The notes under the pieces were generated by a model. It was not told the origin of the DNA. It worked only from the letters and a program-made list of their open reading frames with translations, and searched no databases. The position numbers were made by a program, and so were the translations under genes. Source: an uncultured Candidatus Saccharibacteria bacterium (GTDB taxonomy: Bacteria > Patescibacteriota > Minisyncoccia > UBA6257 > JACRHW01). From it: 15,377 nt of DNA. The stretch is taken from assembly GCA_964388055.1 (NCBI GenBank), contig CAYLXU010000007.1:13661-29037 (forward strand), written 5' to 3'. Positions 240 to 15,377 of the stretch are shown here, piece by piece (positions within the stretch are counted from its first letter, which is position 1; each line of letters starts with the position of its first letter).

Positions 240-1229
240 TTATGAAGTTGGGTAAATACACTCTTCTGGGGCTTTATCGCCCCGTAAACGAACAAATTGC
301 GGATGTCGCAACGCGCCAGAAGGAAATCTTCTCTGGTACTCAACCTGAACAACTAATGGATATGTTGCATGAGCAAAATCTTCACGCTCTGCATCGCTAA
401 AACCACCACCAACCTCGCCACATGAAACCATCTCTCCCGTCTGTGGATCTATCTGAGCAAGATATAATTTCCCCATTCTATCCTTGTTCTTTCCTGTTCC
501 ATACGTAAAACGCGTAGCTATGAAGTCATCCTCAAAATGAGGTTTCCACTTCCAACACCCATCGGGACGAATAGGCTGATCCTTCCTCCCATCAAGTCGA
601 AAAGCAGTTGGCTTTGTCCCATCGTAAAGAACGAGACCCTCCCACCCTTCTCTAAGAACCTGTTTCCGCGCCTTATTAAAGGAACAACTAAGTACAGGGA
701 CAGGGGAGATTGAAGAAACATGGGAACTGTTTTGATGTCCGCCAAACAAAGACTTAAGCATGTAAAGACGCTCCCTATATGGCTTGTCCGAAGTTATTCG
801 TCCCTCCCAAATAATAGGGTCAAAAATCATATACACGGCCTTACCAGCTTCGCTCTGAAGTGCGATAGCAGCCTCTGGCTTCGACTTCGCAATGCGGGTA
901 AGCATCTCGAACTCATCCCGACCACTATTATCGACCAACATCTCTCCATCAAAAAGAAAGTCTCCTGTAGGCAACCCTAGCCGCAAAAAGTCTTCACAAA
1001 TATGGGGATATAATGCAGTAACATCTTCGATCCCACGAGTATAGATCCTTACACGAGAGGAGGAAACCACTACTAAATGGCGATACCCATCTCTTTTGCG
1101 CGTGATGATCAAATCTCCTTGCTGCTCAAGTTCATACACCTTGCGATCTTCAACGCTGTGTTTTGGTTTAGCCGGAACAAAATTCTTATCAAGAGGATCG
1201 AGAGAAAAGGGGAGTATGTGCTGTAACAC
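240..1229 (-). CDS. ATP-dependent DNA ligase, small single-module type (329 aa). GTG start.
   Basis: Nucleotidyltransferase motifs: motif I KxDGxR (ITRKRDGYRH), motif III (FLFDGEMLV), motif IV (EGLVLY), motif V (WKWKP). SD GGAGGTG lies 5 nt upstream of the GTG start. Confidence 0.8.
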   Translation of the reverse strand: MLQHILPFSLDPLDKNFVPAKPKHSVEDRKVYELEQQGDLIITRKRDGYRHLVVVSSSRVRIYTRGIEDVTALYPHICEDFLRLGLPTGDFLFDGEMLVDNSGRDEFEMLTRIAKSKPEAAIALQSEAGKAVYMIFDPIIWEGRITSDKPYRERLYMLKSLFGGHQNSSHVSSISPVPVLSCSFNKARKQVLREGWEGLVLYDGTKPTAFRLDGRKDQPIRPDGCWKWKPHFEDDFIATRFTYGTGKNKDRMGKLYLAQIDPQTGEMVSCGEVGGGFSDAEREDFAHATYPLVVQVEYQRRFPSGALRHPQFVRLRGDKAPEECIYPTS

Positions 1230-3754: not shown

Positions 3755-3979
3755 ACCCGGTTATTACAATTTCGATTCGTAAAACGACATTTTTAAATAG
3801 CTCATGTGTGATCTATACATAGTCGAGATTATAGCAAAAAATGGTGTTCTTCTCTGTGCGTGAGCGCATATCGAAGTTGTAAAACCAGGCATGCTGCAAT
3901 AAACACATATGATATAACACGAAGCCTATACACAAAACAAATCCCTTACCTACATACATAGATGAGGTACAAAGAAAAA

Positions 3980-4048
3980 ATGTTTCACGTGAAACATTTC
4001 GTGAAACATCTTGACAATGTGTTTCACAAAATGTGAAACATGTTTCAC
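3980..4048. promoter_or_regulatory. Array B of the same operator-like motif. 3980-3997 is the perfect 18-bp palindrome ATGTTTCACGTGAAACAT. 4001-4009 is GTGAAACAT, followed by TTGACAAT at 4011-4018. 4019-4027 is gTGTTTCAC. 4033-4048 is the perfect palindrome GTGAAACATGTTTCAC.
   Basis: Direct reading. Six half-sites fall in 69 bp. The layout half-site / TTGACAAT / inverted half-site / 16-bp palindrome matches array A. Confidence 0.6.
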
Positions 4049-4058
4049 GGCGCGGTAA

Positions 4059-5537
4059 TCAAAGTGTCTTGCGCACATAATAGTCCACCGGTGCAAAATC
4101 ATCAGTAAGAATCGGTGTGTCATTTTCTACCTCTCCTTTCCATATCTGTTGCAAATATCCATTAATCTCCTCGTTGTCACTCTCAAAACTTGGAGACACG
4201 TCTGACTTTAGCGCGACCAGTATAATATTTTGTACGCGCGCGTTCTCTAATTTTCTTACAGGAAATAAATACACCTGAGGAAACACACTCTTGTATGTGG
4301 CATATTCAGCACGTAAAAATTCTCCCTGAACACCATTAATAGAAGAAATGATATTAATAATCGCGACCCCGTCGTCATGTAATGCACCAAATATTTTTTC
4401 CGTCGCCTCCCTTGTAGTGAGTTGATAGGGGATAGAATAAAGAGCATGAAACGCATCTCCAAAAATAACATCATATTTATTGCGAGTTGTGTTTAAAAAC
4501 GCTCTCGCATCCTCGTGAAAAATATTCAACCTTGGATCGTCTTTGAGATTAAAATAGCGTCGAGCTAACGCCGTTACCCCTTCATCAATCTCCACCACAT
4601 CAAGATACGCGTTGGGATATTGTTTTAAATAATCTCTTGGATATGTATACCCCGCACCACCTATCACAAGGGATTTTTTAATCTCCGGCTTGAAATGTTT
4701 TGCGATACGATAAAACTTGGTGTAGTCGAACACCAAGTCATCCTCTCCTTCTAGAAAAATGGCAGATTGCGTTCCAAACGGATCAAATGCCATGTTAAGA
4801 GTTTCTCTCTGTGTCTTAGAATCAACGCCCTTATAAATAAACACTCTGCTATATTTTGTATCTACATCAGCAACAAGAGATTTACCATACACAAGATGGG
4901 TACCGTTTTTAAAAAATAAAACGGTAAGAAAAAGTGCTATAAAAATTAATTTAGTTTTTAAAAACTTTTTTGAATCAACAGCAACCGCAACAAGAAGAAG
5001 GGTAAGCGCAAGTAAGATCAAAATTCTCTCCGAGCCAACATGAGGAATAAGAAGAAAACCTCCAAAGAATGTGCCAAAAATACTCCCAACAGTAGAAAGC
5101 GCATATAAATTTCCCGCCGTTGTTCCAGCAGTGTTTACGTTTTCTAATTTAAGCTTTAAAGCATAGGGAGAAATCATCCCCAACAACACGCTTGCCGGGG
5201 CAAATAAAATAAGCGCTGAAAAAAACGATGCAAATTCTATGCTTATCAAGCCCTGAAATGGGACAAGCACCATTCCTTTCATAAAAAGAGTGAACGCAAT
5301 GAGGAGAGCAGAGAAAAAAATAATCAACGAAAAAACTTCAATGCGAGGATTGTTGTCAGCCATTCTTCCACCAAACCAATATCCAAAACTTAGGCTTCCC
5401 AAAATCACCCCAATCAAACTAGTCCATACAAAAATAGAGGTACCTAAATAGGGGGCCAATATCCTCGAGCCAACAAGCTCAAAAATCATCACCACTGCCC
5501 CACATAAAAATACTGAGTATTCTAACTTATATCTCAT
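4059..5537 (-). CDS. Membrane-anchored spermidine/spermine synthase family protein (492 aa). An N-terminal multi-TM domain is fused to a C-terminal aminopropyltransferase-like domain.
   Basis: About 200 aa of hydrophobic helices are followed by a spermidine-synthase-like core. The core includes SLVIGGAGYTYPRDYL (a glycine-rich AdoMet-type loop) and DVIFGDAF. SD AGGAGA is upstream. Confidence 0.75.
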   Translation of the reverse strand: MRYKLEYSVFLCGAVVMIFELVGSRILAPYLGTSIFVWTSLIGVILGSLSFGYWFGGRMADNNPRIEVFSLIIFFSALLIAFTLFMKGMVLVPFQGLISIEFASFFSALILFAPASVLLGMISPYALKLKLENVNTAGTTAGNLYALSTVGSIFGTFFGGFLLIPHVGSERILILLALTLLLVAVAVDSKKFLKTKLIFIALFLTVLFFKNGTHLVYGKSLVADVDTKYSRVFIYKGVDSKTQRETLNMAFDPFGTQSAIFLEGEDDLVFDYTKFYRIAKHFKPEIKKSLVIGGAGYTYPRDYLKQYPNAYLDVVEIDEGVTALARRYFNLKDDPRLNIFHEDARAFLNTTRNKYDVIFGDAFHALYSIPYQLTTREATEKIFGALHDDGVAIINIISSINGVQGEFLRAEYATYKSVFPQVYLFPVRKLENARVQNIILVALKSDVSPSFESDNEEINGYLQQIWKGEVENDTPILTDDFAPVDYYVRKTL

Positions 5538-5593
5538 ACTATCTCCTATGAATTATAAACCACATTCATTCTACACAGAACCCTTTTCCAGTG

Positions 5594-5624
5594 TTATAAA
5601 AACCCCTTCAGTGGGGTTTTTATA
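5594..5624 (-). terminator. Intrinsic terminator downstream of the 119-aa ORF (minus strand). It is structurally bidirectional.
   Basis: Minus strand reads AAAAACCCC-actgaa-GGGGTTTTTAT. The stem is cccc 5603-5606 paired with gggg 5613-5616. Confidence 0.65.
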
Positions 5625-5634
5625 ACAGGACAAA

Positions 5635-5994
5635 TTATGTATCAACCTCTTTCTTTAAAAGATTAATAACCTTCTCTCGCAACCCATATTCTTCGGGAAT
5701 GCGACGCAGATAATATTGCAATGTTTCAATAAATTCATTTGTAGTCATAATAGCTTTACGCTCTTCCTTGGTAAAAAACTTCTGTAGTTTCCCGCGCGCT
5801 TCATCGATACACTGAATCACTTCATCGACTTGATACTCTTTTTCTCCCTCTCCGTGTATCACAGAAAGTATTTTAAGTTCCTTCTTTAAAGCATCGAAAG
5901 AGTCTATGCCTTGAAACGGTGCCTCTGTTTTCGTCGCCCCCACTGCTTCTTGTTGTCTCTTTGTAGAAGCAGGAATTTGTTTTGGTTGTTCCAT
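5635..5994 (-). CDS. Hypothetical protein (119 aa), acidic and hydrophilic.
   Basis: Complete ORF, terminated by the 5594-5624 hairpin. No SD and no recognisable motifs. It lies directly downstream (minus strand) of tRNA-Val and the structured element. Confidence 0.5.
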   Translation of the reverse strand: MEQPKQIPASTKRQQEAVGATKTEAPFQGIDSFDALKKELKILSVIHGEGEKEYQVDEVIQCIDEARGKLQKFFTKEERKAIMTTNEFIETLQYYLRRIPEEYGLREKVINLLKKEVDT

Positions 5995-6041
5995 GAAAAA
6001 GTTAGGCCAAACAAAAGATTTAAATGAATACTCCTCGGCTT

Positions 6042-6060
6042 ACTCTTCAAAACTTTGGAC
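6042..6060. repeat. Left arm of a perfect 19-bp inverted repeat (ACTCTTCAAAACTTTGGAC).
   Basis: Its exact reverse complement lies at 6262-6280. Confidence 0.9.
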
Positions 6061-6061
6061 A

Positions 6062-6080
6062 GTGGACGGTACAGGACTCG
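6062..6080 (-). repeat. 19-nt direct duplicate of the 3' end of tRNA-Val (T-loop through discriminator, gtggacggtacaggactcg).
   Basis: 6062-6080 is identical to 6192-6210. The next 8 nt (gtcacaac) resemble the inverted complement of the adjacent tRNA segment (gtcacagg). Confidence 0.85.
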
Positions 6081-6190
6081 GTCACAACTTTTTTGCTTCG
6101 CAAAAAGTCGCGACCCCGCCTCCCCCGATAGTCATCGGGGTCCGGCTTTCGAGTCCTGGCGCAAACAAATAAATTTGCTTACTTACCCTC
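6081..6190 (-). other. Structured non-coding element between tRNA-Val and the 119-aa ORF. It may be an RNA (attenuator, processing or leader element) or an att-site remnant.
   Basis: Minus-strand hairpins are present. ACTTTTTGC-gaa-GCAAAAAAGT is the plus-strand inverted repeat at about 6086-6109, rc-mapped from plus cttttttgc(6087-6095)...gcaaaaag(6100-6107). CCCCGAT-gact-ATCGGGG comes from the plus-strand palindrome ccccgat(6124-6130)-agtc-atcgggg(6135-6141), and shares its CCCCG with the alternative pairing GACCCCG/CGGGGTC. CAGGACTCG pairs with CGAGTCCTG of the duplicated tRNA tail. Confidence 0.35.
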
Positions 6191-6192
6191 GG

Positions 6193-6265
6193 TGGACGGT
6201 ACAGGACTCGAACCTGTGACCCTCTCGGTGTAAACGAGATGCTCTACCAACTGAGCTAACCGTCC
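6193..6265 (-). tRNA. tRNA-Val, anticodon UAC, 73 nt. CCA is not encoded.
   Basis: Manual cloverleaf: acceptor GGACGGT/ACCGTCC, D-arm GCTC-AGTTGGTA-GAGC, anticodon arm TCTCG-TTTACAC-CGAGA (anticodon TAC), variable loop GGGTC, T-arm ACAGG-TTCGAGT-CCTGT, discriminator A. Confidence 0.9.
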
Positions 6266-6280
6266 AAAGTTTTGAAGAGT
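6262..6280. repeat. Right arm of the perfect 19-bp inverted repeat. It overlaps the first 4 nt of tRNA-Val.
   Basis: The reverse complement of 6262-6280 equals 6042-6060 exactly. Confidence 0.9.
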
Positions 6281-6285
6281 GTAAA

Positions 6286-6336
6286 CGGAGAAAATAAAGA
6301 CCTTTATTTTCTCCTCCAACGAACTGAGCTAAGCAT
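6286..6336. repeat. Perfect 13-bp-stem AT-rich hairpin (GGAGAAAATAAAG-acc-CTTTATTTTCTCC, 6286-6314). It is followed by a tRNA 5'-fragment-like sequence at 6318-6336.
   Basis: The stem was read directly. 6318-6336 (ccaacgaactgagctaagc) resembles the D-arm region of the adjacent tRNA (accaactgagctaaccg). Confidence 0.6.
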
Positions 6337-6387
6337 GCCTTTTATGTATTTCAAAATAAAACATTTTTCCCAAAAAATCAATATACA

Positions 6388-6416
6388 TTGACACGGCGCA
6401 TTGTTCAATGTAATAT
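6388..6416 (+). promoter_or_regulatory. Sigma70 promoter of the 406-aa membrane-protein gene. TTGACA (6388-6393), 17-nt spacer, TAATAT (6411-6416).
   Basis: Consensus -35, exact 17-nt spacer and a near-consensus -10. It lies about 43 nt upstream of the ATG at 6459. SD AAAGGGG is at 6443-6449. Confidence 0.6.
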
Positions 6417-6458
6417 ACTTTCGGCAGCTCATCGACAACCAGAAAGGGGTGTCATCAC

Positions 6459-7679
6459 ATGAAACGAAACATCGCGTTTTTTTTAAGTGTATTTCTTCTA
6501 GCACTTTTTGCGCCAGCCTACGCGACTCCTGAAAATCTTTCCCAGGAAGGAACTCGACTCTTTATACCAAGAGAGCAAGTGGAAGCCCTCCTCCCTATCA
6601 AGTACCGTATTGAGGGGATCATACAAGGAGCAGAAGGGCTGACAGACAAGACAAACGCAAACAAAGCGGTTACACAACAACTTTCTCTTGCAAAAAATAT
6701 TCTTGGACGCGAAACAAATGTGAAAGAACTCCTGAATCTTCAACCACCCCCACCCCCTCAGCTTACCCCGCTTCAAAAGGCGGCAGGTTTTGTAACATTT
6801 GTAAACATCCTTTGGGTCTTTGCGATCTGTTTGCTCCTGATGAGTCTCTGGTATCTTATCCCACGATGGTTCGGGTGGGTAGTGCTCATTTTCCAAATGA
6901 TTCCTGCAGAACTCTACGAACTGCTTCTCTATGCCGCAAGTTTTGGACTTGTCCTCTACGGTGCACAGCTGGATCCAGAAATCGGACAGTATCTTGCCCT
7001 CACCGGATGCCTCTTCCTTATGGGATCACTCACTTTCACGACGTACCTACACGAACTTAAACTAAGCGGAACAGGGTTCTCCGGAATCCTCTTTATTGCA
7101 TGGGCGCTTGCAGCAGTGATTTGCAACAGTCCGCTTGTAGGATTTCTCGCTATCATGGCGCTTATGAGTGCACTTGGGTTCAGCATCATTGTTACACCCA
7201 TGTGTTATGGAATCGGTTTTGAAGAAGAGAGTTTTGTGGGAAGAGCAACCTCTGCAGCATTTATTGTACTTGGCATCTTCGTAGTTCTCCGCATTACAGG
7301 AGCCCAACTCCCCTACATAATGGTATTCGAAAAAGGAGCCCTCTTTATGGGAAGTTTTGTGGGATACCTCGGACTTCTTATTGCATCGTCCCGGTGGTTC
7401 ATGAACCGTAGTCCCGAAGGATACATCGGGTTCCAGCTTCTCACTATTCTTGCCGGAGTTGCAGCGCTCTTTGTAGGATCTACGTGGAACATCGCAGAAC
7501 TTCAAAAAATCGGTGGAACATTCTTCGTCCTATACCTGATCGAAAAAACAATGGAAATTCCGGTAGACAAAAAAGAGCACTACGCATACATCCTACTCTT
7601 TCTCTCACTCCTTATCTATGGGCTTTGTATGTTTATCAAAACACATTTTGATCTCGTCCGCCCATATCTGTTTATGTAA
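6459..7679 (+). CDS. Integral membrane protein of unknown function (406 aa). A signal peptide and a roughly 110-aa extracytoplasmic domain are followed by a PPPPP linker and about 9 TM helices.
   Basis: N-terminus MKRNIAFFLSVFLLALFAPAYA-TPE has a signal-peptidase-I-like AYA|T site. QPPPPPQLTP follows, then repeated hydrophobic segments to the C-terminus. A promoter, SD and terminator are all present. Confidence 0.75.
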   Translation: MKRNIAFFLSVFLLALFAPAYATPENLSQEGTRLFIPREQVEALLPIKYRIEGIIQGAEGLTDKTNANKAVTQQLSLAKNILGRETNVKELLNLQPPPPPQLTPLQKAAGFVTFVNILWVFAICLLLMSLWYLIPRWFGWVVLIFQMIPAELYELLLYAASFGLVLYGAQLDPEIGQYLALTGCLFLMGSLTFTTYLHELKLSGTGFSGILFIAWALAAVICNSPLVGFLAIMALMSALGFSIIVTPMCYGIGFEEESFVGRATSAAFIVLGIFVVLRITGAQLPYIMVFEKGALFMGSFVGYLGLLIASSRWFMNRSPEGYIGFQLLTILAGVAALFVGSTWNIAELQKIGGTFFVLYLIEKTMEIPVDKKEHYAYILLFLSLLIYGLCMFIKTHFDLVRPYLFM

Positions 7680-7724
7680 ACCCTCACCAAATACTCAGCC
7701 CAAAAACTGAGATCCAACGTAGCA

Positions 7725-7760
7725 AAAAAGAAATCCCCAAAGAATGGGGATTTTATTTTT
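7725..7760 (+). terminator. Intrinsic terminator for the membrane-protein gene.
   Basis: ATCCCCA-aagaa-TGGGGAT (7733-7751) followed by TTTTATTTTT. Confidence 0.65.
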
Positions 7761-7761
7761 G

Positions 7762-7788
7762 CACAAAAAAGAGGGGAATCCCCCTCAA
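7762..7788 (-). terminator. Intrinsic terminator for the flotillin gene (minus strand).
   Basis: Minus strand reads GAGGGG-gatt-CCCCTC followed by TTTTTTGTGC. The plus-strand stem is 7771-7786. Confidence 0.6.
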
Positions 7789-7793
7789 ATATT

Positions 7794-9575
7794 TTACTCT
7801 GTTGCAACTTCCTGCTCTTCTTTTTTCTTATCATCATCTTTTACAGACATGCCATCAAGTATCTCTGAAGTAACCCCAATCTTTTCAAGAAGGTTTCCAA
7901 AACCAAGCGCCTTGGCTTTTGCAATAACATTAAAAAACATTTCTGGCGTAAGGTTTGCAAACTTATTAAGAGCCCCGCTACCACTTCCGTTGCTGTTCCC
8001 ACCAAAGTCATACATCCGAATCGAATCAACGCTTGAAAGCGGAGCAGCCATCTGCCCAAACACGTTCGCGAGACCTTGAGGACCGAGCGCCTTCGCAAGA
8101 GCGTCGCCAAGAGATTCCGCGACACGTGGTGCAGCATCAAGCACCTGGAGAAGTTTACCTGTCTGATCAAGTTGCGCAAGCGCCTTAGCAAGTTGCTCTT
8201 TACCCTTCGCTTCAGCAAGAAGTTTCGCCTCTGCACCCTTCGCTTCAGCCATAAGCTCTGCTTCCTTACCCGTTGCATTCGCAACAAGCTCTGCTTCAAC
8301 ACCCGCTGCCGCAGCAAGACGCTTTGCCTTTTCACCATCAGCTTCTGCAGTAAGCCTTGCACGCGTTGCATCCGCATCACCCTGACCACGTTTTGCAGTT
8401 GCCTCTGCATCCGCCTCAGCCTTCGTCTTAATGGCTTGTGCCTGTTTTGCCGCAGCCTCAAATGCTGCCTCTGCCTGAATAATCTGTTTTGATTTTTCTG
8501 CCTCTGCGGAAATAACTTGAGTCTTGCGCTCTGCCTCGGCCTTAATAATGGCGGATTCCCGCTCTGCCTCGGCAGGTTTAATTACTTGGAATTGAAGTTC
8601 TTTTTCTACACGCAGGGTTTCCTGCTCCGCAAGACGAATCTTTGACTCAGTCTCAGCAGCAAGAGCCTCAACCCTCTTCTGTCGCACTTCCTTATCACGC
8701 TCAGCAGTTGCAATAGCACCAGCCTGCTCGGCAATGGCACGCTCACGATCCGTAAGTGCCTTAAACTGGGCAACTTGAACGTCGCGCTCCTTCTGAGCCT
8801 GTGCAACAGCAACTGCGTTCTGGGCAGCAACAAGTTCGGCCTCTTTCTTTGCGTTACTTGCAGCAATATCCGCATCACGCGTCGCCTCGGCTTCACCGAT
8901 CTGCGCATCTCGCTTTACCTCAGCGGTACGCCTCTTGCCCAATGATTCAATATATCCAGACGTATCTGAAATTTGCTGAATGGTAAGAATAGTAACGCGC
9001 ACACCAATCTTCAGAAGCTCAGTCTCTGCACCAGAAAGGACCGCCCTATTAAGAGACTCACGATTTCCAATAAGGTTTTCAATGGTGAGCGTGCCAAGAA
9101 TGGAGCGCAGCTGACCCTCAAGGTTTTCCCGAATAATGGTATTAATGTCTTCGTCCTTTTTCCCCTCAAAGGTTCGCACCGCCGCAATCAGAGTTGCCAT
9201 ATCGGATCCAATCACAACGGTCGCCGTACCTCTAGCATTTACCATAACTCCGCCCTCAGTAGGAATATCTTTCACCTCGAGTGGGATAAGACGCGCATCG
9301 AGACGCAGCTCCGAATAGTCCTCAAAAAATGGCCACACAAGAGCACCACCACCCGTAAGAAGTCGGAATCCCAACTCTTCTTTCTTTTTTGTCCCATCGG
9401 CGCCAGTCACCTCATATGTGTTTTTCCGACCATAAATGATACCAACCCTGCTTGGCGGTACTCGCTTATACCTACTCGTGGCATAACGCGCTGCGCTAAA
9501 AAGTGCCAAACAAACGAGAAGTGCACCAATAATCAATCCAAGATTTGACATAACTACCTTAAGAAGTTCCTCCAT
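7794..9575 (-). CDS. Flotillin (SPFH/band-7 domain protein, FloT/YuaG-like), 593 aa.
   Basis: An N-terminal TM helix is followed by an SPFH domain and a long alanine/glutamate-rich coiled coil with the AEAE(A/K) flotillin repeats (for example AEAEKSKQIIQAEAAFEAAAKQAQAIKTKAEADAEA). The tail is G/S-rich. SD GGAAGGAGA is upstream. The gene sits 4 nt downstream of nfeD. Confidence 0.9.
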   Translation of the reverse strand: MEELLKVVMSNLGLIIGALLVCLALFSAARYATSRYKRVPPSRVGIIYGRKNTYEVTGADGTKKKEELGFRLLTGGGALVWPFFEDYSELRLDARLIPLEVKDIPTEGGVMVNARGTATVVIGSDMATLIAAVRTFEGKKDEDINTIIRENLEGQLRSILGTLTIENLIGNRESLNRAVLSGAETELLKIGVRVTILTIQQISDTSGYIESLGKRRTAEVKRDAQIGEAEATRDADIAASNAKKEAELVAAQNAVAVAQAQKERDVQVAQFKALTDRERAIAEQAGAIATAERDKEVRQKRVEALAAETESKIRLAEQETLRVEKELQFQVIKPAEAERESAIIKAEAERKTQVISAEAEKSKQIIQAEAAFEAAAKQAQAIKTKAEADAEATAKRGQGDADATRARLTAEADGEKAKRLAAAAGVEAELVANATGKEAELMAEAKGAEAKLLAEAKGKEQLAKALAQLDQTGKLLQVLDAAPRVAESLGDALAKALGPQGLANVFGQMAAPLSSVDSIRMYDFGGNSNGSGSGALNKFANLTPEMFFNVIAKAKALGFGNLLEKIGVTSEILDGMSVKDDDKKKEEQEVATE

Positions 9576-9579
9576 GTTA

Positions 9580-10077
9580 TTAGCTCTCCTTCCTTTCTAC
9601 TAAGCAGACACCGCCGGTATCTGCCGTGACCCTTACCGGCGTTCCCGCCGGCAAAGTCTGACCACTTTGAGAACGAGCAACAAACTCTTGAGTACCTCCA
9701 GCAACGTCACACACAATCTTGCCCACACTATTGGAGGGAATCTCGATGGTCACAACCCCAAGCGTATTCAGAAGCCGCGAAGAGGTAACCATAGAATCAC
9801 CTTGCTGTTTACGCATCATCTGCATTAGGCCGAATGCCAAACACCAACACAAAACACCGATCCCAACACCACCAAGGGTGCTCATTCCAACAGGATAGCC
9901 ATTAACCTGCATAAGAGTGCCCACACCACCAAAACCGACAAGAAACCAAGAAACTGTAAAAACAGAAAAAATACCACCATCATGGCCATCGTGGCCGCCC
10001 ACATCGTGATCTCCAAACAGAACGGACACCAACATAAGTGCCACACCAATCACACCAGACACAAGAAATAACGCCAT
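9580..10077 (-). CDS. NfeD-like membrane protein (YuaF-like short form, about 165 aa), the upstream partner of flotillin.
   Basis: The ORF-track start at 10284 is rejected. The internal ATG at 10077 is preceded by AAGGAGGagaatgat. The protein (MALFLVSGVIGVALMLVSV...) has two or three TM helices, then a soluble C-terminal beta-rich domain (GKIVCDVAGGTQEFVARSQSGQTLPAGTPVRVTADTGGVCLVE). This is typical of NfeD OB-fold proteins encoded with SPFH genes. Confidence 0.7.
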   Translation of the reverse strand: MALFLVSGVIGVALMLVSVLFGDHDVGGHDGHDGGIFSVFTVSWFLVGFGGVGTLMQVNGYPVGMSTLGGVGIGVLCWCLAFGLMQMMRKQQGDSMVTSSRLLNTLGVVTIEIPSNSVGKIVCDVAGGTQEFVARSQSGQTLPAGTPVRVTADTGGVCLVERKES

Positions 10078-10109
10078 ATCATTCTCCTCCTTTCTTTTCA
10101 AGGAACATG

Positions 10110-10125
10110 TCGCCAAAATTGGCGA
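10110..10125. promoter_or_regulatory. Perfect 16-bp palindrome TCGCCAAAATTGGCGA in the nfeD 5' leader.
   Basis: Read directly. It lies between the putative minus-strand -35 (TTGACAA, rc of 10161-10167) and the nfeD SD. It may be an operator or a leader hairpin. Confidence 0.4.
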
Positions 10126-10159
10126 TCTAACCAAACAATTTCTTACACAAAGCACCAAC

Positions 10160-10190
10160 CTTGTCAATATATCTTGTTTTATTTTTATGG
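10160..10190. promoter_or_regulatory. Divergent promoter region. The plus strand reads TTGTCAAT and the minus strand reads TTGACAA over the same 8 bp (10161-10168).
   Basis: The minus-strand TTGACA has a 16-17-nt spacer to a weak TAAGAA. The plus-strand TTGTCA lies about 70 nt upstream of the GGAGGTGG SD of the small ORF. The same TTGTCAAT word occurs at 151-158 and 189-196, and TTGACAAT at 4011-4018. Confidence 0.35.
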
Positions 10191-10234
10191 TTATGGCATG
10201 ACTAATACAGAACCTTGAACGGAGGTGGTCAAAC

Positions 10235-10480
10235 TTGAATACAGACGACCCGCTTGCGTCGTTGATTCTCCGCATAAGGACCATTGTGCTGATTTTTATA
10301 GCATTGTATGTAGCGCTCTATATTATAAGACACCAAATTACTCCCGCAGCACCTCAACCTACGCAAGAGGTAAAAATCCAGGCAACGACACCTGTAACCG
10401 AATTGCAGAAGGAGCCGGTCCAAAAACAAAAACCAGAAAAAACACAAACACCAAAGAAACAAAAGAAAAACCCCAGATAG
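10235..10480 (+). CDS. Small single-TM protein with a K/Q/P-rich C-terminal tail (81 aa). TTG start.
   Basis: Strong SD GGAGGTGG lies 6 nt before the TTG. A TM segment TIVLIFIALYVALYII is present. The stop falls in the loop of a perfect terminator hairpin. Confidence 0.5.
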   Translation: MNTDDPLASLILRIRTIVLIFIALYVALYIIRHQITPAAPQPTQEVKIQATTPVTELQKEPVQKQKPEKTQTPKKQKKNPR

Positions 10481-10490
10481 GGGTTTTTAA
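10464..10490. terminator. Bidirectional intrinsic terminator between the small ORF (+) and dcd (-).
   Basis: AAAAACCCC-agata-GGGGTTTTT (stem 10471-10474 paired with 10480-10483). Confidence 0.7.
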
Positions 10491-10509
10491 TTATCCACTT
10501 CCCACCTTT

Positions 10510-11175
10510 CTATTTTCCTACTTCCCGGTCTTGATACAGTCGTGGGAGCATCATGTCTGGCTTCCACGACTTTTTGAGCTTTTCAAAATCCTTCACATTC
10601 TGATACTTTCCATCTGACGCATAATCCTTTGCTGCAATCTCCTTTACATCAAAAAAAATAATCTGCGCGATACGACGCCCGACCACAAGCGGAATAGTAT
10701 AGTGTCTGGAATTATTTGTAATCTCCATCGTCCAGCGATTTACATAACCAACGTCTCCCCATCCCGCACACTTACACACCTCTATAAAATTCCTTCCAAG
10801 CGACGAACGTGCCTTCATCATTGTGGTAATAGTGCCACGCCCACCAATAAACTCATTCGTGTGCCCAAGTATCGTCTCCCCTGGCTCCAAAAGGATGACC
10901 CTATCTTCGGGAGCGATCCCCTTAAAATCAAAGTGCTTTAACACCTTTGCTGCCTTCTCCGCCTTAAAATGTTCCTTACCCCATACACGTTCTACGTGTT
11001 CCTTATTATATATGTTATATAAATGCACATAATTGTCCGGCCTCCTCTCGCGGAAAAAATATTCACCAAGCGATACGTCATAACTTGATGTCTTTAAATT
11101 TTCGGTCTGGTAGGGATCAATAACAATGTTCCCTTGCTCAATTGCTTGTAAAATCGCTTTATCACCTAGAGTCAT
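10510..11175 (-). CDS. dcd: dCTP deaminase family protein (Dcd/dUTPase fold), 221 aa.
   Basis: The N-terminus is Dcd-like (TLGDKAILQAIEQGNIVIDP...SYDVSLG). The ARSSLGR and GW.D.GY segments are conserved. There is no SD. Confidence 0.75.
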   Translation of the reverse strand: MTLGDKAILQAIEQGNIVIDPYQTENLKTSSYDVSLGEYFFRERRPDNYVHLYNIYNKEHVERVWGKEHFKAEKAAKVLKHFDFKGIAPEDRVILLEPGETILGHTNEFIGGRGTITTMMKARSSLGRNFIEVCKCAGWGDVGYVNRWTMEITNNSRHYTIPLVVGRRIAQIIFFDVKEIAAKDYASDGKYQNVKDFEKLKKSWKPDMMLPRLYQDREVGK

Positions 11176-11281
11176 AATTGTAGAAAATAAAAATTAGTAA
11201 CCAAAACTCAGAAATTTGAGTGTATTTTTTTAGACCACCTTCTTAAGTAAGCTTATCGGGTTTAGCTCTTGTCAGAAAGAC

Positions 11282-11310
11282 TTGACATATGTATATATAT
11301 GTGATACACT
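11282..11310 (+). promoter_or_regulatory. Sigma70 promoter for the GC-rich ORF. TTGACA (11282-11287), 17-nt spacer, TACACT (11305-11310).
   Basis: The hexamers and spacer were read directly. SD GGGGG lies at 11328-11332 and the ATG at 11343. Confidence 0.55.
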
Positions 11311-11342
11311 GTAACTAGCACACTGAAAGGGGGTTTGCAGCA

Positions 11343-11702
11343 ATGCAGACTACCAACAACTTCAAAGACATCTTCGGCTTCGAGCCAGCAAAAACGCAGG
11401 CAGCCACGCCGATCGAGACCAGCATCGTGAACTCCAAGCTCGGTGAACTCCTCTGCACGTACGACGGCTTGCACGAGGAGAAGCAGGCGCTCGTGGAGAA
11501 GTACCACGACGGTATTCCCAAGGGCATCAGCATCGAGCAGGCGCTCAAGGACCGAGAGGTCGCGCTCGATCTCGAGAAGAGAACGCGTGAAGCCTGGAAC
11601 GCTTTCGAGGGCTCAGGAAGCATGGCCAAGTCCGCTGGATATGCCGTGGATGACACCAACAAGCTTCGAGAGGACAACAAGAAGGCCACCGTCAACGCGT
11701 AA
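11343..11702 (+). CDS. Hypothetical small acidic protein (119 aa). Its composition (about 60% GC) and codon usage are anomalous, so it is probably horizontally acquired.
   Basis: GC counted at 36/60 for 11401-11460, against 33-42% in sampled flanking genes. Third codon positions are C/G-rich (AAG, GAG, ATC, CTC, GGC, GAC). It has its own promoter, SD and terminator. Other-frame ORFs here are Arg/Ser-rich artefacts. Confidence 0.65.
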   Translation: MQTTNNFKDIFGFEPAKTQAATPIETSIVNSKLGELLCTYDGLHEEKQALVEKYHDGIPKGISIEQALKDREVALDLEKRTREAWNAFEGSGSMAKSAGYAVDDTNKLREDNKKATVNA

Positions 11703-11710
11703 GGCCGCAA

Positions 11711-11746
11711 AGGCAGGGTAACCAACCCCTGCTTTTTCTTTTTTAT
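11711..11746 (+). terminator. Intrinsic terminator of the GC-rich ORF.
   Basis: GCAGGG-taaccaac-CCCTGC (11713-11732) followed by TTTTTCTTTTTTAT. Confidence 0.65.
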
Positions 11747-11891
11747 TCAAACTAAAGCCTAAACAAAACTCTGGGTGTATGCCGAGATATCTTCCACACC
11801 TAAACAACCCCCTACCCCCATTTTCTACTTTATAGGGACGTGCTATCCTAAATCCAGTTCGTTTACAGTATAATAGGAGGAATAAAAACAC

Positions 11892-12713
11892 ATGCGACAA
11901 TATCTCGACCTCCTCAAAGACATTCTAGAAAATGGCGTAGACCGTCCGGATCGTACAGGGGTGGGAAGCAGGGCAGTCTTTGGAAGACAGATGAGATTTG
12001 CTATGGCGGATGGATTTCCGGCAGTAACCACTAAAAAGTTGGCGTTTAAGTTAGTTAAAGCAGAACTTCTGTGGTTCCTTAGTGGAAGTTCCGACGTAAA
12101 CAAGCTCCGTGAACTTGGTTGCACAATTTGGGACGAAAATGCAGAAGCGCCCTATTGGAAACCAAAAGCGCGGTTTGAGGGAGACTTGGGACGAGTATAT
12201 GGGGTACAGTGGCGCTCATGGCGAACCCCCTCAGGAACAGAAGTTGATCAAATCGCCCAACTCATTGACCGCATAAAAACAAATCCACACGACAGACGCC
12301 ACATTGTAAACGCTTGGAATCCTGGCGAGTTAGACCAAATGGCGCTTCCACCATGCCATGCCTTCTTTCAATGTTTTGTAGTAAATGACACCATCTCGCT
12401 TCAAATGTATCAACGAAGCTGCGATATGTTTTTAGGCGTACCATTCAACATTGCCTCTTATTCGCTCTTGCTTCACATGATTGCACAAGTAACCGGATTA
12501 AAAGCAGGGGAGTTTGTCCATACTCTTGGGGACGCACATATCTACCTTGACCACTTTGATCAGGTCAAAGAACAACTCACTCGGGAACCCCTACCACTTC
12601 CGCAACTCTGGCTTAATCCAGACATCAAAGACTTGCACAATTTCACAATGGACGACATTAAGCTTATTGGATATAAAAGCCATGAAGGTATTAAAGCCCG
12701 AATGGCGGTATAA
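11892..12713 (+). CDS. thyA: Thymidylate synthase ThyA (273 aa).
   Basis: Canonical ThyA sequence throughout: MRQYLDLLKDILENG..DRTG.G..FG.QMRF....GFP..TTKK. The active-site region LPPCHAFFQ and the segment MYQRSCDMFLGVPFNIASYSLL are present. SD AGGAGG lies 11 nt upstream. Confidence 0.95.
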   Translation: MRQYLDLLKDILENGVDRPDRTGVGSRAVFGRQMRFAMADGFPAVTTKKLAFKLVKAELLWFLSGSSDVNKLRELGCTIWDENAEAPYWKPKARFEGDLGRVYGVQWRSWRTPSGTEVDQIAQLIDRIKTNPHDRRHIVNAWNPGELDQMALPPCHAFFQCFVVNDTISLQMYQRSCDMFLGVPFNIASYSLLLHMIAQVTGLKAGEFVHTLGDAHIYLDHFDQVKEQLTREPLPLPQLWLNPDIKDLHNFTMDDIKLIGYKSHEGIKARMAV

Positions 12714-12788
12714 CCTCACCTAAAGGGGTATTAAAAATCCGAACCCTCCCACGCCGAGGCTTTGGGGGGTGAATAAGGAGGAAAAACG

Positions 12789-13298
12789 ATGATCACCATC
12801 TCACTCGTTGCAGCAATGGCACACAACCGCATCATTGGGAATAAAAATAAACTTCCATGGAAACTCCCTGCAGACATGAAGCGCTTCAAGGAACTCACGC
12901 GAGGAAAAATTGTCATCATGGGAAGAAAAACATTCGAGTCGATTGGAAAACCCCTCCCTAATAGAACAAACATTGTCATCACATCACAAGATATCGAAAT
13001 TCCAGGATGTATCGTATCACGTGGCGGTGACGGACCATGGCTACGGGCACTCATTGCCCACCTCGATGGAGCGCCGGAAGAAGTGATGGTAATCGGAGGC
13101 GCCTCTGTCTATCAACAATTTCTTCCCAAAGCAGATCGCATTTATCTCACCTATATTGATGCTGAATTTGAAGGCGATGCAACGTTCCCCATCTTTGAGA
13201 ATCCAAACGTATGGGAAGAAACCGAACGAATAACATACGAGCCAGATGAGCAAAACCTTTACCCCTACACCTTCCTCACCTTTGAAAAAAGAAAATGA
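12789..13298 (+). CDS. folA: Dihydrofolate reductase FolA (169 aa).
   Basis: Canonical DHFR N-terminus (ISLVAAMAHNRIIG..NKLPW.LPADMKRFKELT.GK.VIMGRKTFESIG.PLP.R.NIV.TS). SD AAGGAGG is upstream. The gene follows thyA after 75 nt, so co-transcription is likely. Confidence 0.95.
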   Translation: MITISLVAAMAHNRIIGNKNKLPWKLPADMKRFKELTRGKIVIMGRKTFESIGKPLPNRTNIVITSQDIEIPGCIVSRGGDGPWLRALIAHLDGAPEEVMVIGGASVYQQFLPKADRIYLTYIDAEFEGDATFPIFENPNVWEETERITYEPDEQNLYPYTFLTFEKRK

Positions 13299-13309
13299 TA
13301 AACAAAAAA

Positions 13310-13340
13310 CCAAAAAGCCGCCCACAGGCGGCCTTTTACT
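13310..13340 (+). terminator. Intrinsic terminator after folA.
   Basis: GCCGCC-caca-GGCGGC (13317-13332) followed by CTTTTACTT. Confidence 0.55.
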
Positions 13341-13412
13341 TGTCTACGGATGTATGACATATCATACATTTAGTTGATACTCTTTTTTCTTATTTCAATT
13401 TACAATAAAATT

Positions 13413-13889
13413 ATGAAAACATATTCGATTATGATTGGCGGAGTTGCGACCCTCATCACTCTTTTCATTGTTTTTGCGAGCAACACTGGAGATAGTACGT
13501 CACCACACACCGCTCAACAGTCCAAAGTCACAATCGGGTCAACAACCATTTCTGTTGAAATCGCACGCACGCCGCAGGAACGCGCACAGGGGTTGTCACA
13601 CCGCACATCCCTCGATGAAAACAGGGGAATGTTATTTTTATTTGAAAAACCAGATCTTTATGCGTTCTGGATGCCAAACATGAAATTTCCAATCGACATT
13701 ATTTGGATTGATACAAATAACACCATTGTCGATATACATGAAAATGTTCCCCCATTACAGAACGAACTTTACCCCACATATTATAAACCACAACATCCCG
13801 CGATTTCAGTTCTTGAAGTCAACGCGGGATTTGGAAAACGACACAACATCAAAACAGGAGACAAAATCATATTCAATGCTCCAAATTAA
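13413..13889 (+). CDS. DUF192-domain protein with an N-terminal signal anchor (about 158 aa from the ATG at 13413). The ORF track's TTG at 13374 is an alternative start.
   Basis: DUF192 hallmarks: TPQERAQGL, GMLFLF, FWMPNMKFPIDIIWID, VLEVNAGF, IKTGDKI. The hydrophobic N-terminus is IMIGGVATLITLFIVFA. Confidence 0.75.
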   Translation: MKTYSIMIGGVATLITLFIVFASNTGDSTSPHTAQQSKVTIGSTTISVEIARTPQERAQGLSHRTSLDENRGMLFLFEKPDLYAFWMPNMKFPIDIIWIDTNNTIVDIHENVPPLQNELYPTYYKPQHPAISVLEVNAGFGKRHNIKTGDKIIFNAPN

Positions 13890-13916
13890 AAAAACATGCA
13901 CGTGCATGTTTTTTAT
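13887..13916. terminator. Bidirectional intrinsic terminator between the convergent DUF192 gene and the small 2-TM ORF.
   Basis: AAAAAA-ACATGCACGTGCATGT-TTTTT. The perfect palindrome at 13893-13910 is flanked by A-runs and T-runs. Confidence 0.7.
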
Positions 13917-14161
13917 TAGGACAATATTGATGCCATAAACAATTGAATAGTTGCGCAAAAAAGCCATGTTCCGGCAGCGAAAAAGGCCACCCAACTCCCC
14001 TTAAGAGCATCGAGTCCATAATTAACAGAGGCGATTATACAGACAGTCCCCGCAAGAACGTGAATCACAAAACTGCTTTCCCAAAAAAGCGGAATAAGAC
14101 AAACGAGAGCGGCAGCAAAACCAAAAAAAGTCGATTCTGTCCTAATCTTATCTTCTTGCAT
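13916..14161 (-). CDS. Small membrane protein with two predicted TM helices (81 aa).
   Basis: Excellent SD AAAAAGGAGGTG lies 6 nt before the ATG. Hydrophobic segments AAALVCLIPLFW and VAFFAAGTWLFCATIQLFMASIL are present. It is divergent from the amidase gene. Confidence 0.6.
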   Translation of the reverse strand: MQEDKIRTESTFFGFAAALVCLIPLFWESSFVIHVLAGTVCIIASVNYGLDALKGSWVAFFAAGTWLFCATIQLFMASILS

Positions 14162-14194
14162 AAAGCACCTCCTTTTTAAGATGAACTAACAAAA

Positions 14195-14223
14195 TATATA
14201 TCACACGTGTTGACTTGTGTAAA
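14195..14223 (-). promoter_or_regulatory. Candidate promoter for the small 2-TM ORF. TTTACA (rc of 14218-14223), 17-nt spacer, TATATA (rc of 14195-14200).
   Basis: Read directly. It interleaves with the amidase promoter on the other strand. Confidence 0.45.
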
Positions 14224-14238
14224 TGAAACAGGGATAAT
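14210..14238 (+). promoter_or_regulatory. Sigma70 promoter for the amidase gene. TTGACT (14210-14215), 17-nt spacer, GATAAT (14233-14238).
   Basis: Hexamers at 5/6 and 5/6 of consensus with an exact 17-nt spacer. It lies about 27 nt upstream of the GTG start. Confidence 0.6.
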
Positions 14239-14264
14239 GATCCATCGTACATTCACAACCAGAG

Positions 14265-15170
14265 GTGAGATATGTGAAACGCAACATTCTGATAAGCGTT
14301 GTTCTTTTGCTTACGTGTTGTATGGGAGTCATCGCAAAAATACGGCATTGCCCCACAGAACCTGAAATTAAACTTGAAATCCAAAGGCAGAAGACAGCCG
14401 TTGCCGTACTACGTGCAAAAATAAAACAAACTTCCTCACTAAGAAACTATTACGTTGTGATAGATCCGGGGCACGGAGACGGTGACCCTGGAGCAATAAG
14501 AGACGTAGAAATCAAAAAGAATACAACTATTTCTGTATCTGAAAGTGTTCTTACCCTTGACATCTCGCGACGTCTTGCGTGGAATCTTAGGCAACATGGT
14601 TGCAATATCTTCATGACATTGGGTCCCACAACGATTACAGAGGCACAAGATACATACGCCTTCTGGCACCCCTTCTCACCACCATTTATATTAAAAGAGC
14701 TTAAGCCCCTTCTTTCTCCCTCTCCGTATGCATATACCCCACTTGAGCAAGCACTCACCACACGAACAGAGGTGGCAAACCAAAAAGTACGGAGGTTTGG
14801 AAAGAGAAAAGTTCTTTTTACCTCAATACACGTAGACTCTACAACCTCTTCCGTAAGCGGCATGCGAATCTATTCATATTATGGGACAAGATCTCATCTC
14901 AGTGACACGCTTGCCAAAACCGCAAAAGAAAAGAAGATGGCAAGAGTTAAAAGGGTCGGAAACAAAGAGTTCCCATTTTTTTCAAGCCTCAAATCCGGTT
15001 TTATAGTGATCAACCCAGACTTTAATTACGCACAAGATAAGGTCCTGATAGAAACCGCGAACATCAGAAACGATGCAGACTTCAAGCTCCTTTGCACAGC
15101 TGAGGGAAGAGAGCGTATTGCACAAACCATCGCGGAAGGAATCATCCTTTATGTCTCAAAAAAACGATAA
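14265..15170 (+). CDS. N-acetylmuramoyl-L-alanine amidase (Amidase_3 family, AmiC/CwlC-like) with an N-terminal signal or anchor sequence (301 aa). The start is either GTG 14265 or GTG 14274.
   Basis: Zn-amidase signature YVVIDPGHGDGDPGA at the start of the catalytic domain. LFTSIHVDS is the family's second conserved metal-binding segment. A hydrophobic N-terminus ILISVVLLLTCCMGVIA is present. SD AGAGGTGAG overlaps 14261-14269, which favours the GTG at 14274 as the true start. Confidence 0.8.
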   Translation: MRYVKRNILISVVLLLTCCMGVIAKIRHCPTEPEIKLEIQRQKTAVAVLRAKIKQTSSLRNYYVVIDPGHGDGDPGAIRDVEIKKNTTISVSESVLTLDISRRLAWNLRQHGCNIFMTLGPTTITEAQDTYAFWHPFSPPFILKELKPLLSPSPYAYTPLEQALTTRTEVANQKVRRFGKRKVLFTSIHVDSTTSSVSGMRIYSYYGTRSHLSDTLAKTAKEKKMARVKRVGNKEFPFFSSLKSGFIVINPDFNYAQDKVLIETANIRNDADFKLLCTAEGRERIAQTIAEGIILYVSKKR

Positions 15171-15225
15171 TCTCGGCAATCCCGAGATTTTTAATTTTTA
15201 CATTAAATATGCTAAGGTGTGGTCA

Positions 15226-15377
15226 TGGAAAAAGAAAACATTCCTATTATTCTTACCACGCATCCGTCAGCGGATTATGAACTAATCGACAGCGGTAACA
15301 ACGAAAAATTGGAACGCTATGGTCAGGTTATTTTACGCCGCCCGGACCCGCAAGCGCTATGGCACAAAACAAATGAG
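15226..15377 (+). CDS. 5' end of a gene that runs off the window (first 50 codons, MEKENIPIILTTHPSADYELIDSGNNEKLERYGQVILRRPDPQALWHKTNE...). Function unassigned.
   Basis: ATG at 15226 is preceded by SD AAGGTG with a 7-nt spacer. The frame is open to the window end. Fifty residues are too few for a family call. Confidence 0.45.

Follow-up and report, generated by a model that had tools for sequence, protein, structure and literature searches.

Streamlined genomes of the candidate phyla radiation (CPR) are thought to depend on gene exchange, and the small proteins that they encode are almost entirely uncharacterised. Laterally acquired orphan genes and moron-type autonomous cassettes, in which a promoter, a gene and a terminator are added as one unit between resident genes, are among the described systems closest to the gene considered here. 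In bacteria, as Daubin and Ochman reportedly found in 2004, the AT content of orphan genes and of DNA acquired recently usually exceeds that of the host genome. Here we describe ORFX, the label that we use for the open reading frame (ORF) at positions 11343-11702 on the plus strand of a 15,377-nt stretch of contig CAYLXU010000007.1; we refer to this whole stretch of analysed DNA as the window. Like laterally acquired orphan genes and moron cassettes, ORFX is short and monocistronic, with promoter and terminator matches of its own; it is inserted in an intergenic spacer with the flanking operons left undisturbed; and it is absent from the orthologous site of relatives and is compositionally atypical. 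Our reading is that ORFX is a real, expressed-looking, lineage-specific accessory gene in the genome of an uncultured, ultra-small Parcubacteria bacterium, a cassette gained in the dcd/thyA spacer, most probably by lateral transfer. We give this statement as a whole a probability of roughly 0.6; the coding status and the cassette anatomy are much surer than the lateral gain, and the function of the product is much less sure.

The cassette and its empty site

ORFX is a genuine protein-coding gene with a strongly atypical codon composition. Its coding sequence (11343..11702, +, stop codon included) begins at the first possible start codon and encodes a 119-aa protein with an FGF motif at residues 11-13. 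The protein is acidic and hydrophilic, as an earlier note on this DNA had described it, with an isoelectric point of 5.2 and a grand average of hydropathy of -0.68. The guanine-plus-cytosine (GC) content is three-periodic along the gene, at 0.55, 0.375 and 0.79 for the first, second and third codon positions, and because this periodicity follows the codons it argues for translation rather than for an RNA gene. Overall, GC amounts to 0.572 in ORFX and to 0.429 in the remainder of the window, with a peak of 0.593 over the ORFX region in a 300-bp sliding window. The difference that the earlier note put at 20 points comes to 14.

Where does this excess reside? The values at the first (GC1) and second (GC2) codon positions are ordinary, and the anomaly lies nearly all at third positions (GC3), where ORFX reaches 0.79 (95/120) as compared with 0.33-0.45 across 13 neighbouring genes and with 0.399 for these neighbours pooled (4087 codons; Fisher p = 6e-18 versus ORFX). 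The two-fold NNY codons end in C or T at a ratio of 25:3 in ORFX versus 307:566 in the neighbours, and the NNR codons end in G or A at 25:4 versus 355:442. The codon counts (GAG 10, AAG 10, AAC 7, CTC 7, GAC 6, ATC 5, GCC 5 and GGC 4) agree with the list of G/C-ending codons given earlier (AAG, GAG, ATC, CTC, GGC and GAC). For a background, we used 971 non-overlapping ORFs from approximately 80 related Paceibacteria loci, in which the GC3 deviation has a standard deviation of 0.08 and exceeds +0.3 in just 4 ORFs, one of which is the antisense shadow of ORFX itself. In other words, ORFX is in the top 0.4% of these 971 ORFs, as would be expected of a horizontally acquired gene, with the caveat that the deviation is common to its whole family. 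As a separate observation on composition, the region of the flotillin gene at 7950-9000 also reaches a GC content of 0.50-0.54; here GC3 is a native-like 0.40 and GC1 is 0.66, so this second peak reflects an Ala/Glu/Gly-rich protein and not foreign codon usage.

ORFX and its own signals form a monocistronic, self-contained cassette in the 716-bp dcd-thyA spacer (11176..11891). Upstream lies a match to a sigma-70-type promoter (11282..11310, +), composed of TTGACA (11282-11287), a 17-bp gap and TACACT (11305-11310), with a TG before the -10 element (extended -10); the match scores 10 of 12 positions and is one of just three promoter-like sites in the 3 kb scanned. Transcription would start near 11317, which would leave a 5' untranslated region (UTR) of only about 26 nt, within which a Shine-Dalgarno sequence, GAAAGGGGG (11325..11333, +), can be read 9 nt 5' of the ATG. 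Downstream, a pattern scan finds an intrinsic-terminator-like hairpin, AAAGGCAGGG-TAACCAAC-CCCTGCTTTT, followed by a T-run (11709..11746, +; hairpin 11709-11736). The promoter, ribosome-binding and terminator signals that had been named earlier can thus all be located as consensus matches.

The host belongs to the Parcubacteria/Paceibacteria (CPR), the best matches of the dcd protein being metagenome-assembled genomes at 82-90% identity. Pfam confirms the flanking genes that had been named before, i.e. the divergent dcd on the left (dCTP deaminase, PF22769; 10510..11175, -) and thyA (11892..12713, +) and folA (12789..13298, +) on the right, as well as a DUF192 gene near the locus. All three flanking genes are native in composition, with GC3 values of 0.45, 0.43 and 0.43, respectively. 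For comparison, we used the genomes with the best dcd matches, namely L007 and L008 (groundwater Parcubacteria), L009 and L010. The order amidase-DUF192-folA-thyA<->dcd is kept in all four, and the orthologous thyA/dcd spacer is 73 bp in L007, 72 bp in L008, 187 bp in L009 and approximately 90 bp in L010, with no ORF within it. Additionally, an exhaustive phmmer search of 1.84 billion representative proteins yielded no family member from these four genomes. The presence of the gene between dcd and thyA in related genomes, a check that the earlier note had proposed, can therefore be answered for the four nearest sampled species: it is absent. A tree built from the pairwise identities of five proteins has the topology (L009,(window,(L010,(L007,L008)))), with the window 72-74% identical to its sister clade, and this tree taken together with the empty sites implies one gain in the window lineage as opposed to two losses. 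The distribution thus favours gain.

The locus has also been recovered more than once. An independent sample processed with a different assembler (L093, Logan ERR15087765) contains a second strain that is 99.4% identical to window 10153-15377 (5.2 kb), shares the dcd-ORF-thyA arrangement and shows zero differences in either spacer; its copy of ORFX has an intact frame and three substitutions, leading to H55R and N106G. A JGI contig, L001, likewise carries ORFX adjoining dcd. The presence of the locus in L093 and L001 excludes a chimeric assembly, and the coding frame, which had been left open to revision, is confirmed by the periodicity, by eight homologues and by the intact copy of the second strain. 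The L001 sequence (L001:1-1380, JGI 3300029893) derives from the same organism. It contains an N run within dcd and terminates precisely at the stop codon of ORFX, a break that may be due to heterogeneity of the population at the 3' cassette edge or simply to coverage.

A rare protein family with its own GC3 excess

The exhaustive phmmer search identified eight small homologues of the ORFX product, P0003-P0010, which are 111-124 aa in length and 22-44% identical and align full-length and colinearly at E values of 1.8e-6 to 6e-4. When 5.8 billion clusters were searched through a word index, the only hit was the ORFX product itself, and a profile search via the word-indexed database recovered 5 of the 9 known members and none that were new. 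The family is thus very rare and fast-evolving, with proteins of about 115 aa and roughly ten sequences among 15 billion proteins. All members are unannotated, with no name, no Pfam domain and a handful of occurrences at most. Pairwise identities within the family are 18-44%, and the ORFX product is about equidistant from all of its homologues, at 28-32% in the family alignment and 37% in the best local alignment. A 4007-aa repeat protein, P0002, was rejected as a homologue despite its E value of 1e-19, since its score adds up 20 weak matches, each of about 4 bits, between its repeats and residues 42-96. The pace of evolution is best seen at two syntenic loci, L094 and L095, where the S15 proteins are 77% identical and the family proteins just 37%; the family therefore evolves much faster than its neighbours.

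Residues F11, G12, F13, L33, L36, Y54, A95 and G99 are invariant across the family alignment (A1). AlphaFold2 predicts the structure of the ORFX product with confidence (predicted local distance difference test score of 92.6, predicted template modelling score of 0.80), placing helices at residues 7-11, 22-53, 64-97 and 105-118. In this predicted fold, the N-terminal FGF segment packs on a long antiparallel two-helix hairpin, which is followed by the C-terminal helix. Scans of ORFX and all family members against Pfam, PHROGs and PADLOC gave no credible family, a sequence profile search of the PDB returned coiled-coil noise alone, and a search with the predicted fold gave no specific structural match. 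The earlier statement that the protein has no motif that can be placed holds as far as known families are concerned; it does not hold in the wider sense, as eight distant relatives and an invariant FGF motif have been found. Conservation falls mostly on core residues (Phe, Leu, Tyr, Ala and Gly) and also on a few charged ones, and no catalytic-looking motif emerges. From this one feature, a conserved hydrophobic core lacking catalytic-looking residues, we would guess that the product is a non-enzymatic binding or regulatory protein, perhaps an adaptor, inhibitor or regulator of another macromolecule, and we offer this suggestion with low confidence.

The genes of the family are found in strikingly varied company. 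P0003 (L087), which is the closest-scoring homologue of ORFX, has an AbiEii/DUF6922 pair as its neighbour, within an islet that separates dprA from topA; P0005 (L094) lies between a tyrosine recombinase gene and rpsO; P0004 (L095) is upstream of rpsO; P0009 (L004) is between proS and a histidine-phosphatase gene; P0007 (L096) follows a cytochrome c gene; P0010 (L002) shares a mosaic contig with a tRNA and with nucleases of the DpnI-like and HSDR_N-like kinds; and P0008 (L003) follows a BNR-repeat gene. The P0003 islet (L087:8918-10336, and also L088-L092) has the same arrangement in six contigs from several samples, and the L087 genome, with a GC content of 40%, encodes RelA and ParB that match those of the window strain in tblastx segments at 44-67% identity. 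The contexts are mutually unrelated and no homologue adjoins nucleotide-metabolism genes, so the dcd/thyA position of ORFX looks incidental. The link to nucleotide metabolism that had been drawn from this position is not supported, the genes next to homologues being rpsO, proS, dprA/topA, cytochrome c and restriction-type nucleases.

Despite these varied surroundings, the expression signals recur. Most members stand alone as genes and have a strong promoter match. Of the 9 family genes, 7 (ORFX and six homologues), in different genomes and contexts, have a perfect TTGACA as their -35 hexamer, plausibly spaced from a -10 element, and a terminator-like hairpin is found downstream of most family genes. 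The layout of promoter, gene and terminator is therefore a feature of the family and was probably not borrowed locally by the window copy, and since TTGACA and the hairpin recur in unrelated contexts, the promoter probably travels with the gene rather than being a host signal. This result speaks against the earlier description of the ORFX signals as local and host-like.

The composition, too, is shared. GC3 is higher than in the called neighbours in 8 of 8 members that have such neighbours (ORFX included), with excesses of +0.39 (window), +0.26, +0.14, +0.25, +0.28, +0.22, +0.08 and +0.07, six of which have p<0.01. The ninth member, P0006 (L006), has no called neighbour, and its GC content is 0.633 as compared with 0.509 for the rest of the contig. 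At the two rpsO-linked syntenic loci (L094 and L095; nucleotide identity 71%), both family genes have a GC3 near 0.8 and rpsO itself shows no bias. High GC3 is a family property and not a clean clock of recent transfer. Because the excess is found in all 8 testable members, syntenic rpsO-linked copies included, it weakens the idea of a fresh import, and the earlier conclusion that ORFX was recently acquired, which had been drawn from composition, no longer follows; moreover, protein identity to the nearest relatives without it is only about 74%. The G/C-ending codons may instead reflect either a GC-rich mobile reservoir from which different genomes are seeded or a gene-specific force, i.e. selection on synonymous sites or biased conversion in a gene that is often exchanged, and would not be merely the signature of a fresh donor. 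There is a more general caution here for the detection of horizontal transfer by composition: a "foreign" GC content can belong to a gene family without providing a time stamp for its transfer.

Five relatives share an additional feature: a 5' leader of about 105 nt, conserved and rich in GC, is situated between the promoter and the start codon (L094:1133-1241, L095:41-149, L006:192-300, L096:689-802 and L004:1113-1220). The leader folds as three hairpins; a C(C/U)AAA loop tops each of the last two, and the third directly borders the Shine-Dalgarno sequence. In the alignment of the five leaders, 86% of cells are paired and compensatory changes occur in 12 of 27 pairs, values that 0 of 500 shuffles reach, with the structure derived from the same five-sequence alignment that was used to test covariation. 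Nucleotide identity between L094 and L095 is 74% in the leader versus 64% in the coding sequence. Rfam has no match for the leader, a covariance model (R1) detected no further leader in 864 kb of sequence, including the window and L087, and searches for exact patterns in JGI metagenomes (two patterns) and IMG/VR gave zero matches. We consider the leader a candidate for a new cis-regulatory RNA.

ORFX, with its 5' UTR of about 26 nt and no R1 match in the window, is presumably a leaderless, unregulated copy, and its product may be made constitutively, a suggestion that we make with low confidence. One can go further and picture an undescribed module, in which a rare family of hairpin proteins, encoded by genes that keep G/C-rich synonymous sites regardless of the base composition of their carrier, includes a subgroup with a structured leader and in which ORFX is a leaderless, deregulated member captured by a Parcubacterium. 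We regard this fuller scheme as speculative and rather unlikely. If it were true, the leader could serve the encoded protein as a binding site for autoregulation or could act in the manner of a riboswitch, and the window copy would be deregulated and constitutive. The confident fold prediction, the consensus-like promoters and the leader absent from Rfam that some members possess together make the family a candidate regulator or a candidate RNA-protein pair.

Origin of the gene and competing explanations

How did ORFX come to lie between dcd and thyA? We infer that a self-contained unit of about 0.5-0.6 kb, comprising promoter, short UTR with Shine-Dalgarno sequence, coding sequence and terminator, was gained in the divergent dcd/thyA spacer after the window lineage had split from its nearest sampled relatives, and most probably by lateral transfer. 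Horizontal transfer into Patescibacteria has been documented, thyA included (PMC12455944), and the dcd neighbourhood, which is variable across Paceibacteria, seems prone to gene replacement. On this reading, ORFX gives a clean record of a small gene being gained in a streamlined CPR genome, and the example is useful, if ordinary.

Several points weigh against this reading. The comparison set that defines native composition consists of the window neighbours, with no ribosomal-protein gene on the available sequence of this genome. Protein identity to the relatives without the gene is about 74%, such that the gene could have been lost in the sister clades or the gain could be old, and a "recent" acquisition is therefore not established. 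No mobility signature (integrase, transposase, tRNA target or flanking repeats) is present around 11176-11891, where the search for flanking direct or inverted repeats, a target-site duplication or an attachment site gave nothing beyond chance-sized matches; the only tRNA in the window (Val, 6191-6265) is 5 kb from ORFX. No donor can be identified among 15 billion proteins, the closest homologues being 28-32% identical, and neither a donor nor a discordant phylogeny points to horizontal acquisition. All three ORFX differences between the two strains are non-synonymous, with too few sites to test for selection. Finally, the promoter and the terminator are consensus pattern matches, and their activity is predicted.

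The most serious alternative is that ORFX is a long-resident native gene that has been lost in the relatives, with its G/C-ending codons kept by gene-specific selection, on expression or mRNA stability, or by GC-biased conversion. The GC3 enrichment of every testable family member is what such a force would produce, and the syntenic rpsO-linked copies have stayed near a GC3 of 0.8 in spite of a divergence that mutational equilibrium alone is unlikely to permit (S15 77%, nucleotide 71%); near-consensus promoters in most members would additionally suggest high expression. Yet rpsO, a highly expressed ribosomal gene that adjoins two of these copies, is without bias, and in ORFX C- and G-ending codons are both increased, which resembles a shift in base composition more than tRNA-matched selection. 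Selection on RNA structure within the coding sequence was rejected, as the folding of the ORFX mRNA does not differ significantly from that of synonymous permutations (z = -1.13), and the corresponding values across family members are mixed (+0.05 to -2.6). Parsimony on the five-genome tree favours gain, no homologue was found from the genomes of the four relatives, and the genomic context differs in nearly every member. We thus consider long residence possible, although on the unlikely side.

A different kind of mobility is invoked if ORFX is a moron derived from a phage or another mobile element, with an anti-defence, inhibitory or nucleotide-pool-modulating product that was placed in a nucleotide cluster for that role. 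The autonomous arrangement of promoter, gene and terminator would fit, as would the fast evolution of the protein (37% between syntenic copies versus 77% for S15) and the company that some homologues keep, i.e. the AbiEii/DUF6922 pair beside P0003, the DpnI-like and HSDR_N-like nucleases of the P0010 contig and the tyrosine recombinase beside P0005. The databases tell otherwise: PHROGs, PADLOC, GenBank phages, IMG/VR, BFVD structures and plasmids contain no match, with ORFX and P0003 as queries for the tblastn searches of GenBank phages and plasmids and for the IMG/VR scans, and the window is without phage genes, so that the phage or anti-defence origin proposed in the earlier note finds neither phage homologues, nor structural relatives, nor prophage residence. 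Nor does ORFX look like part of a defence system, given that it has no PADLOC match, that two homologues have single weak hits (E ~0.01) and that linkage to AbiEii or nucleases is seen in 2 of 9 contexts. The dcd-adjacent slot is simply variable across Paceibacteria and no homologue adjoins nucleotide-metabolism genes, and we judge the moron explanation improbable. Less credible still is the notion that ORFX is not a protein gene at all but a GC-rich structured noncoding RNA, an antisense gene or a chimeric or contaminant piece of assembly. Structured RNAs do often make GC-rich islands in AT-rich genomes, and the ORFX transcript, terminator included, folds somewhat better than its dinucleotide shuffles (z = -2.4); the codon periodicity of GC is foreign to RNA genes, however, Rfam gives no match to ORFX at E<=1 (the sole match in the window being the tRNA elsewhere), and structure is not significant against synonymous permutations. 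The antisense strand has a frame of 136 open codons (11315..11725, -) that stays open in just 3% of synonymous permutations of ORFX, but this frame is closed by 2-5 stops in 7 of 8 homologues and is open only in L004, where this is expected by chance (P0 0.74); we therefore reject an antisense gene and judge the frame to be a shadow of the GC3-rich gene. An artefact might be suspected from the end of L001 at the ORFX stop codon, but the junctions are identical in the independent assembly, with no differences in the spacers. With protein homologues and a confident predicted fold in addition, these non-protein explanations are already largely refuted, and we assign them a very low probability.

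Several neighbouring features deserve mention in their own right. In other Paceibacteria, dcd frequently adjoins thyX (Pfam Thy1), thyA or the gene for thymidylate kinase, these neighbours having a GC3 of 0.17-0.29 over the locus median; such dcd-adjacent high-GC3 genes are located at L035:5054-5929, L053:6747-8135, L037:6774-8162 and L055:6751-8136, and there are further thyA or tmk genes in L017, L047, L023 and L053. These genomes differ widely in how thyA, thyX and folA are ordered and oriented around dcd. On the other side of dcd, window 3755-10509, from murC to dcd, is a second lineage-specific block; the distance between dcd and murC is about 200 bp in L007 and L010 and about 1.5 kb in L008, and the Logan assembly of the second strain breaks at both sides of 6000-10150. 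The block contains genes for a spermidine-synthase-like membrane protein, a 119-aa coiled-coil ORF, tRNA-Val(TAC) (6191-6265, -), a 406-aa membrane protein, flotillin (7794-9575) and an NfeD-like protein. Comparison of ORFX with the other 119-aa helical ORF (5635-5994) revealed no paralogy. At the left end of the window (240-1229, -) is the gene for an ATP-dependent DNA ligase, with DNA_ligase_A_M and OB domains (Pfam hits on L097).

Comparison with described systems

The product of ORFX invites comparison with small helical proteins of known function. WXG100/ESAT-6-like proteins are similar in several ways, being about 100 aa in length, acidic, built as a helix-turn-helix hairpin and encoded by small, strongly expressed genes. 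ORFX differs from them in that its inter-helix loop (residues 54-63, YHDGIPKGIS) has no W-x-G and in that no type VII secretion genes are nearby; membership was rejected, as there is no WxG in the loop of alignment A1 and no match to Pfam WXG100. Small helical-hairpin regulators and binders, such as TraM (the anti-activator of TraR), Rop, SrfA and the DksA/Gre coiled coil, share no sequence similarity with the ORFX product, which differs by an N-terminal FGF segment peculiar to its family and by one more helix at the C terminus. As compared with DksA/Gre in particular, the product has neither a zinc finger (C4) nor a DxxDxA tip, and the residues at the hairpin tip are not conserved; identity as a DksA/Gre secondary-channel factor was likewise rejected, the structural match to DksA having a template modelling score of just 0.51 at E 4.7.

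Unlike morons, ORFX lies outside any prophage or recognisable mobile element, and no phage homologues were found; unlike the usual orphan genes, which are AT-rich, ORFX is shifted towards GC, as is the whole of its family. Orphan genes gained by lateral transfer are of a known kind, and the unusual parts are the family-wide GC3 excess and the leader RNA.

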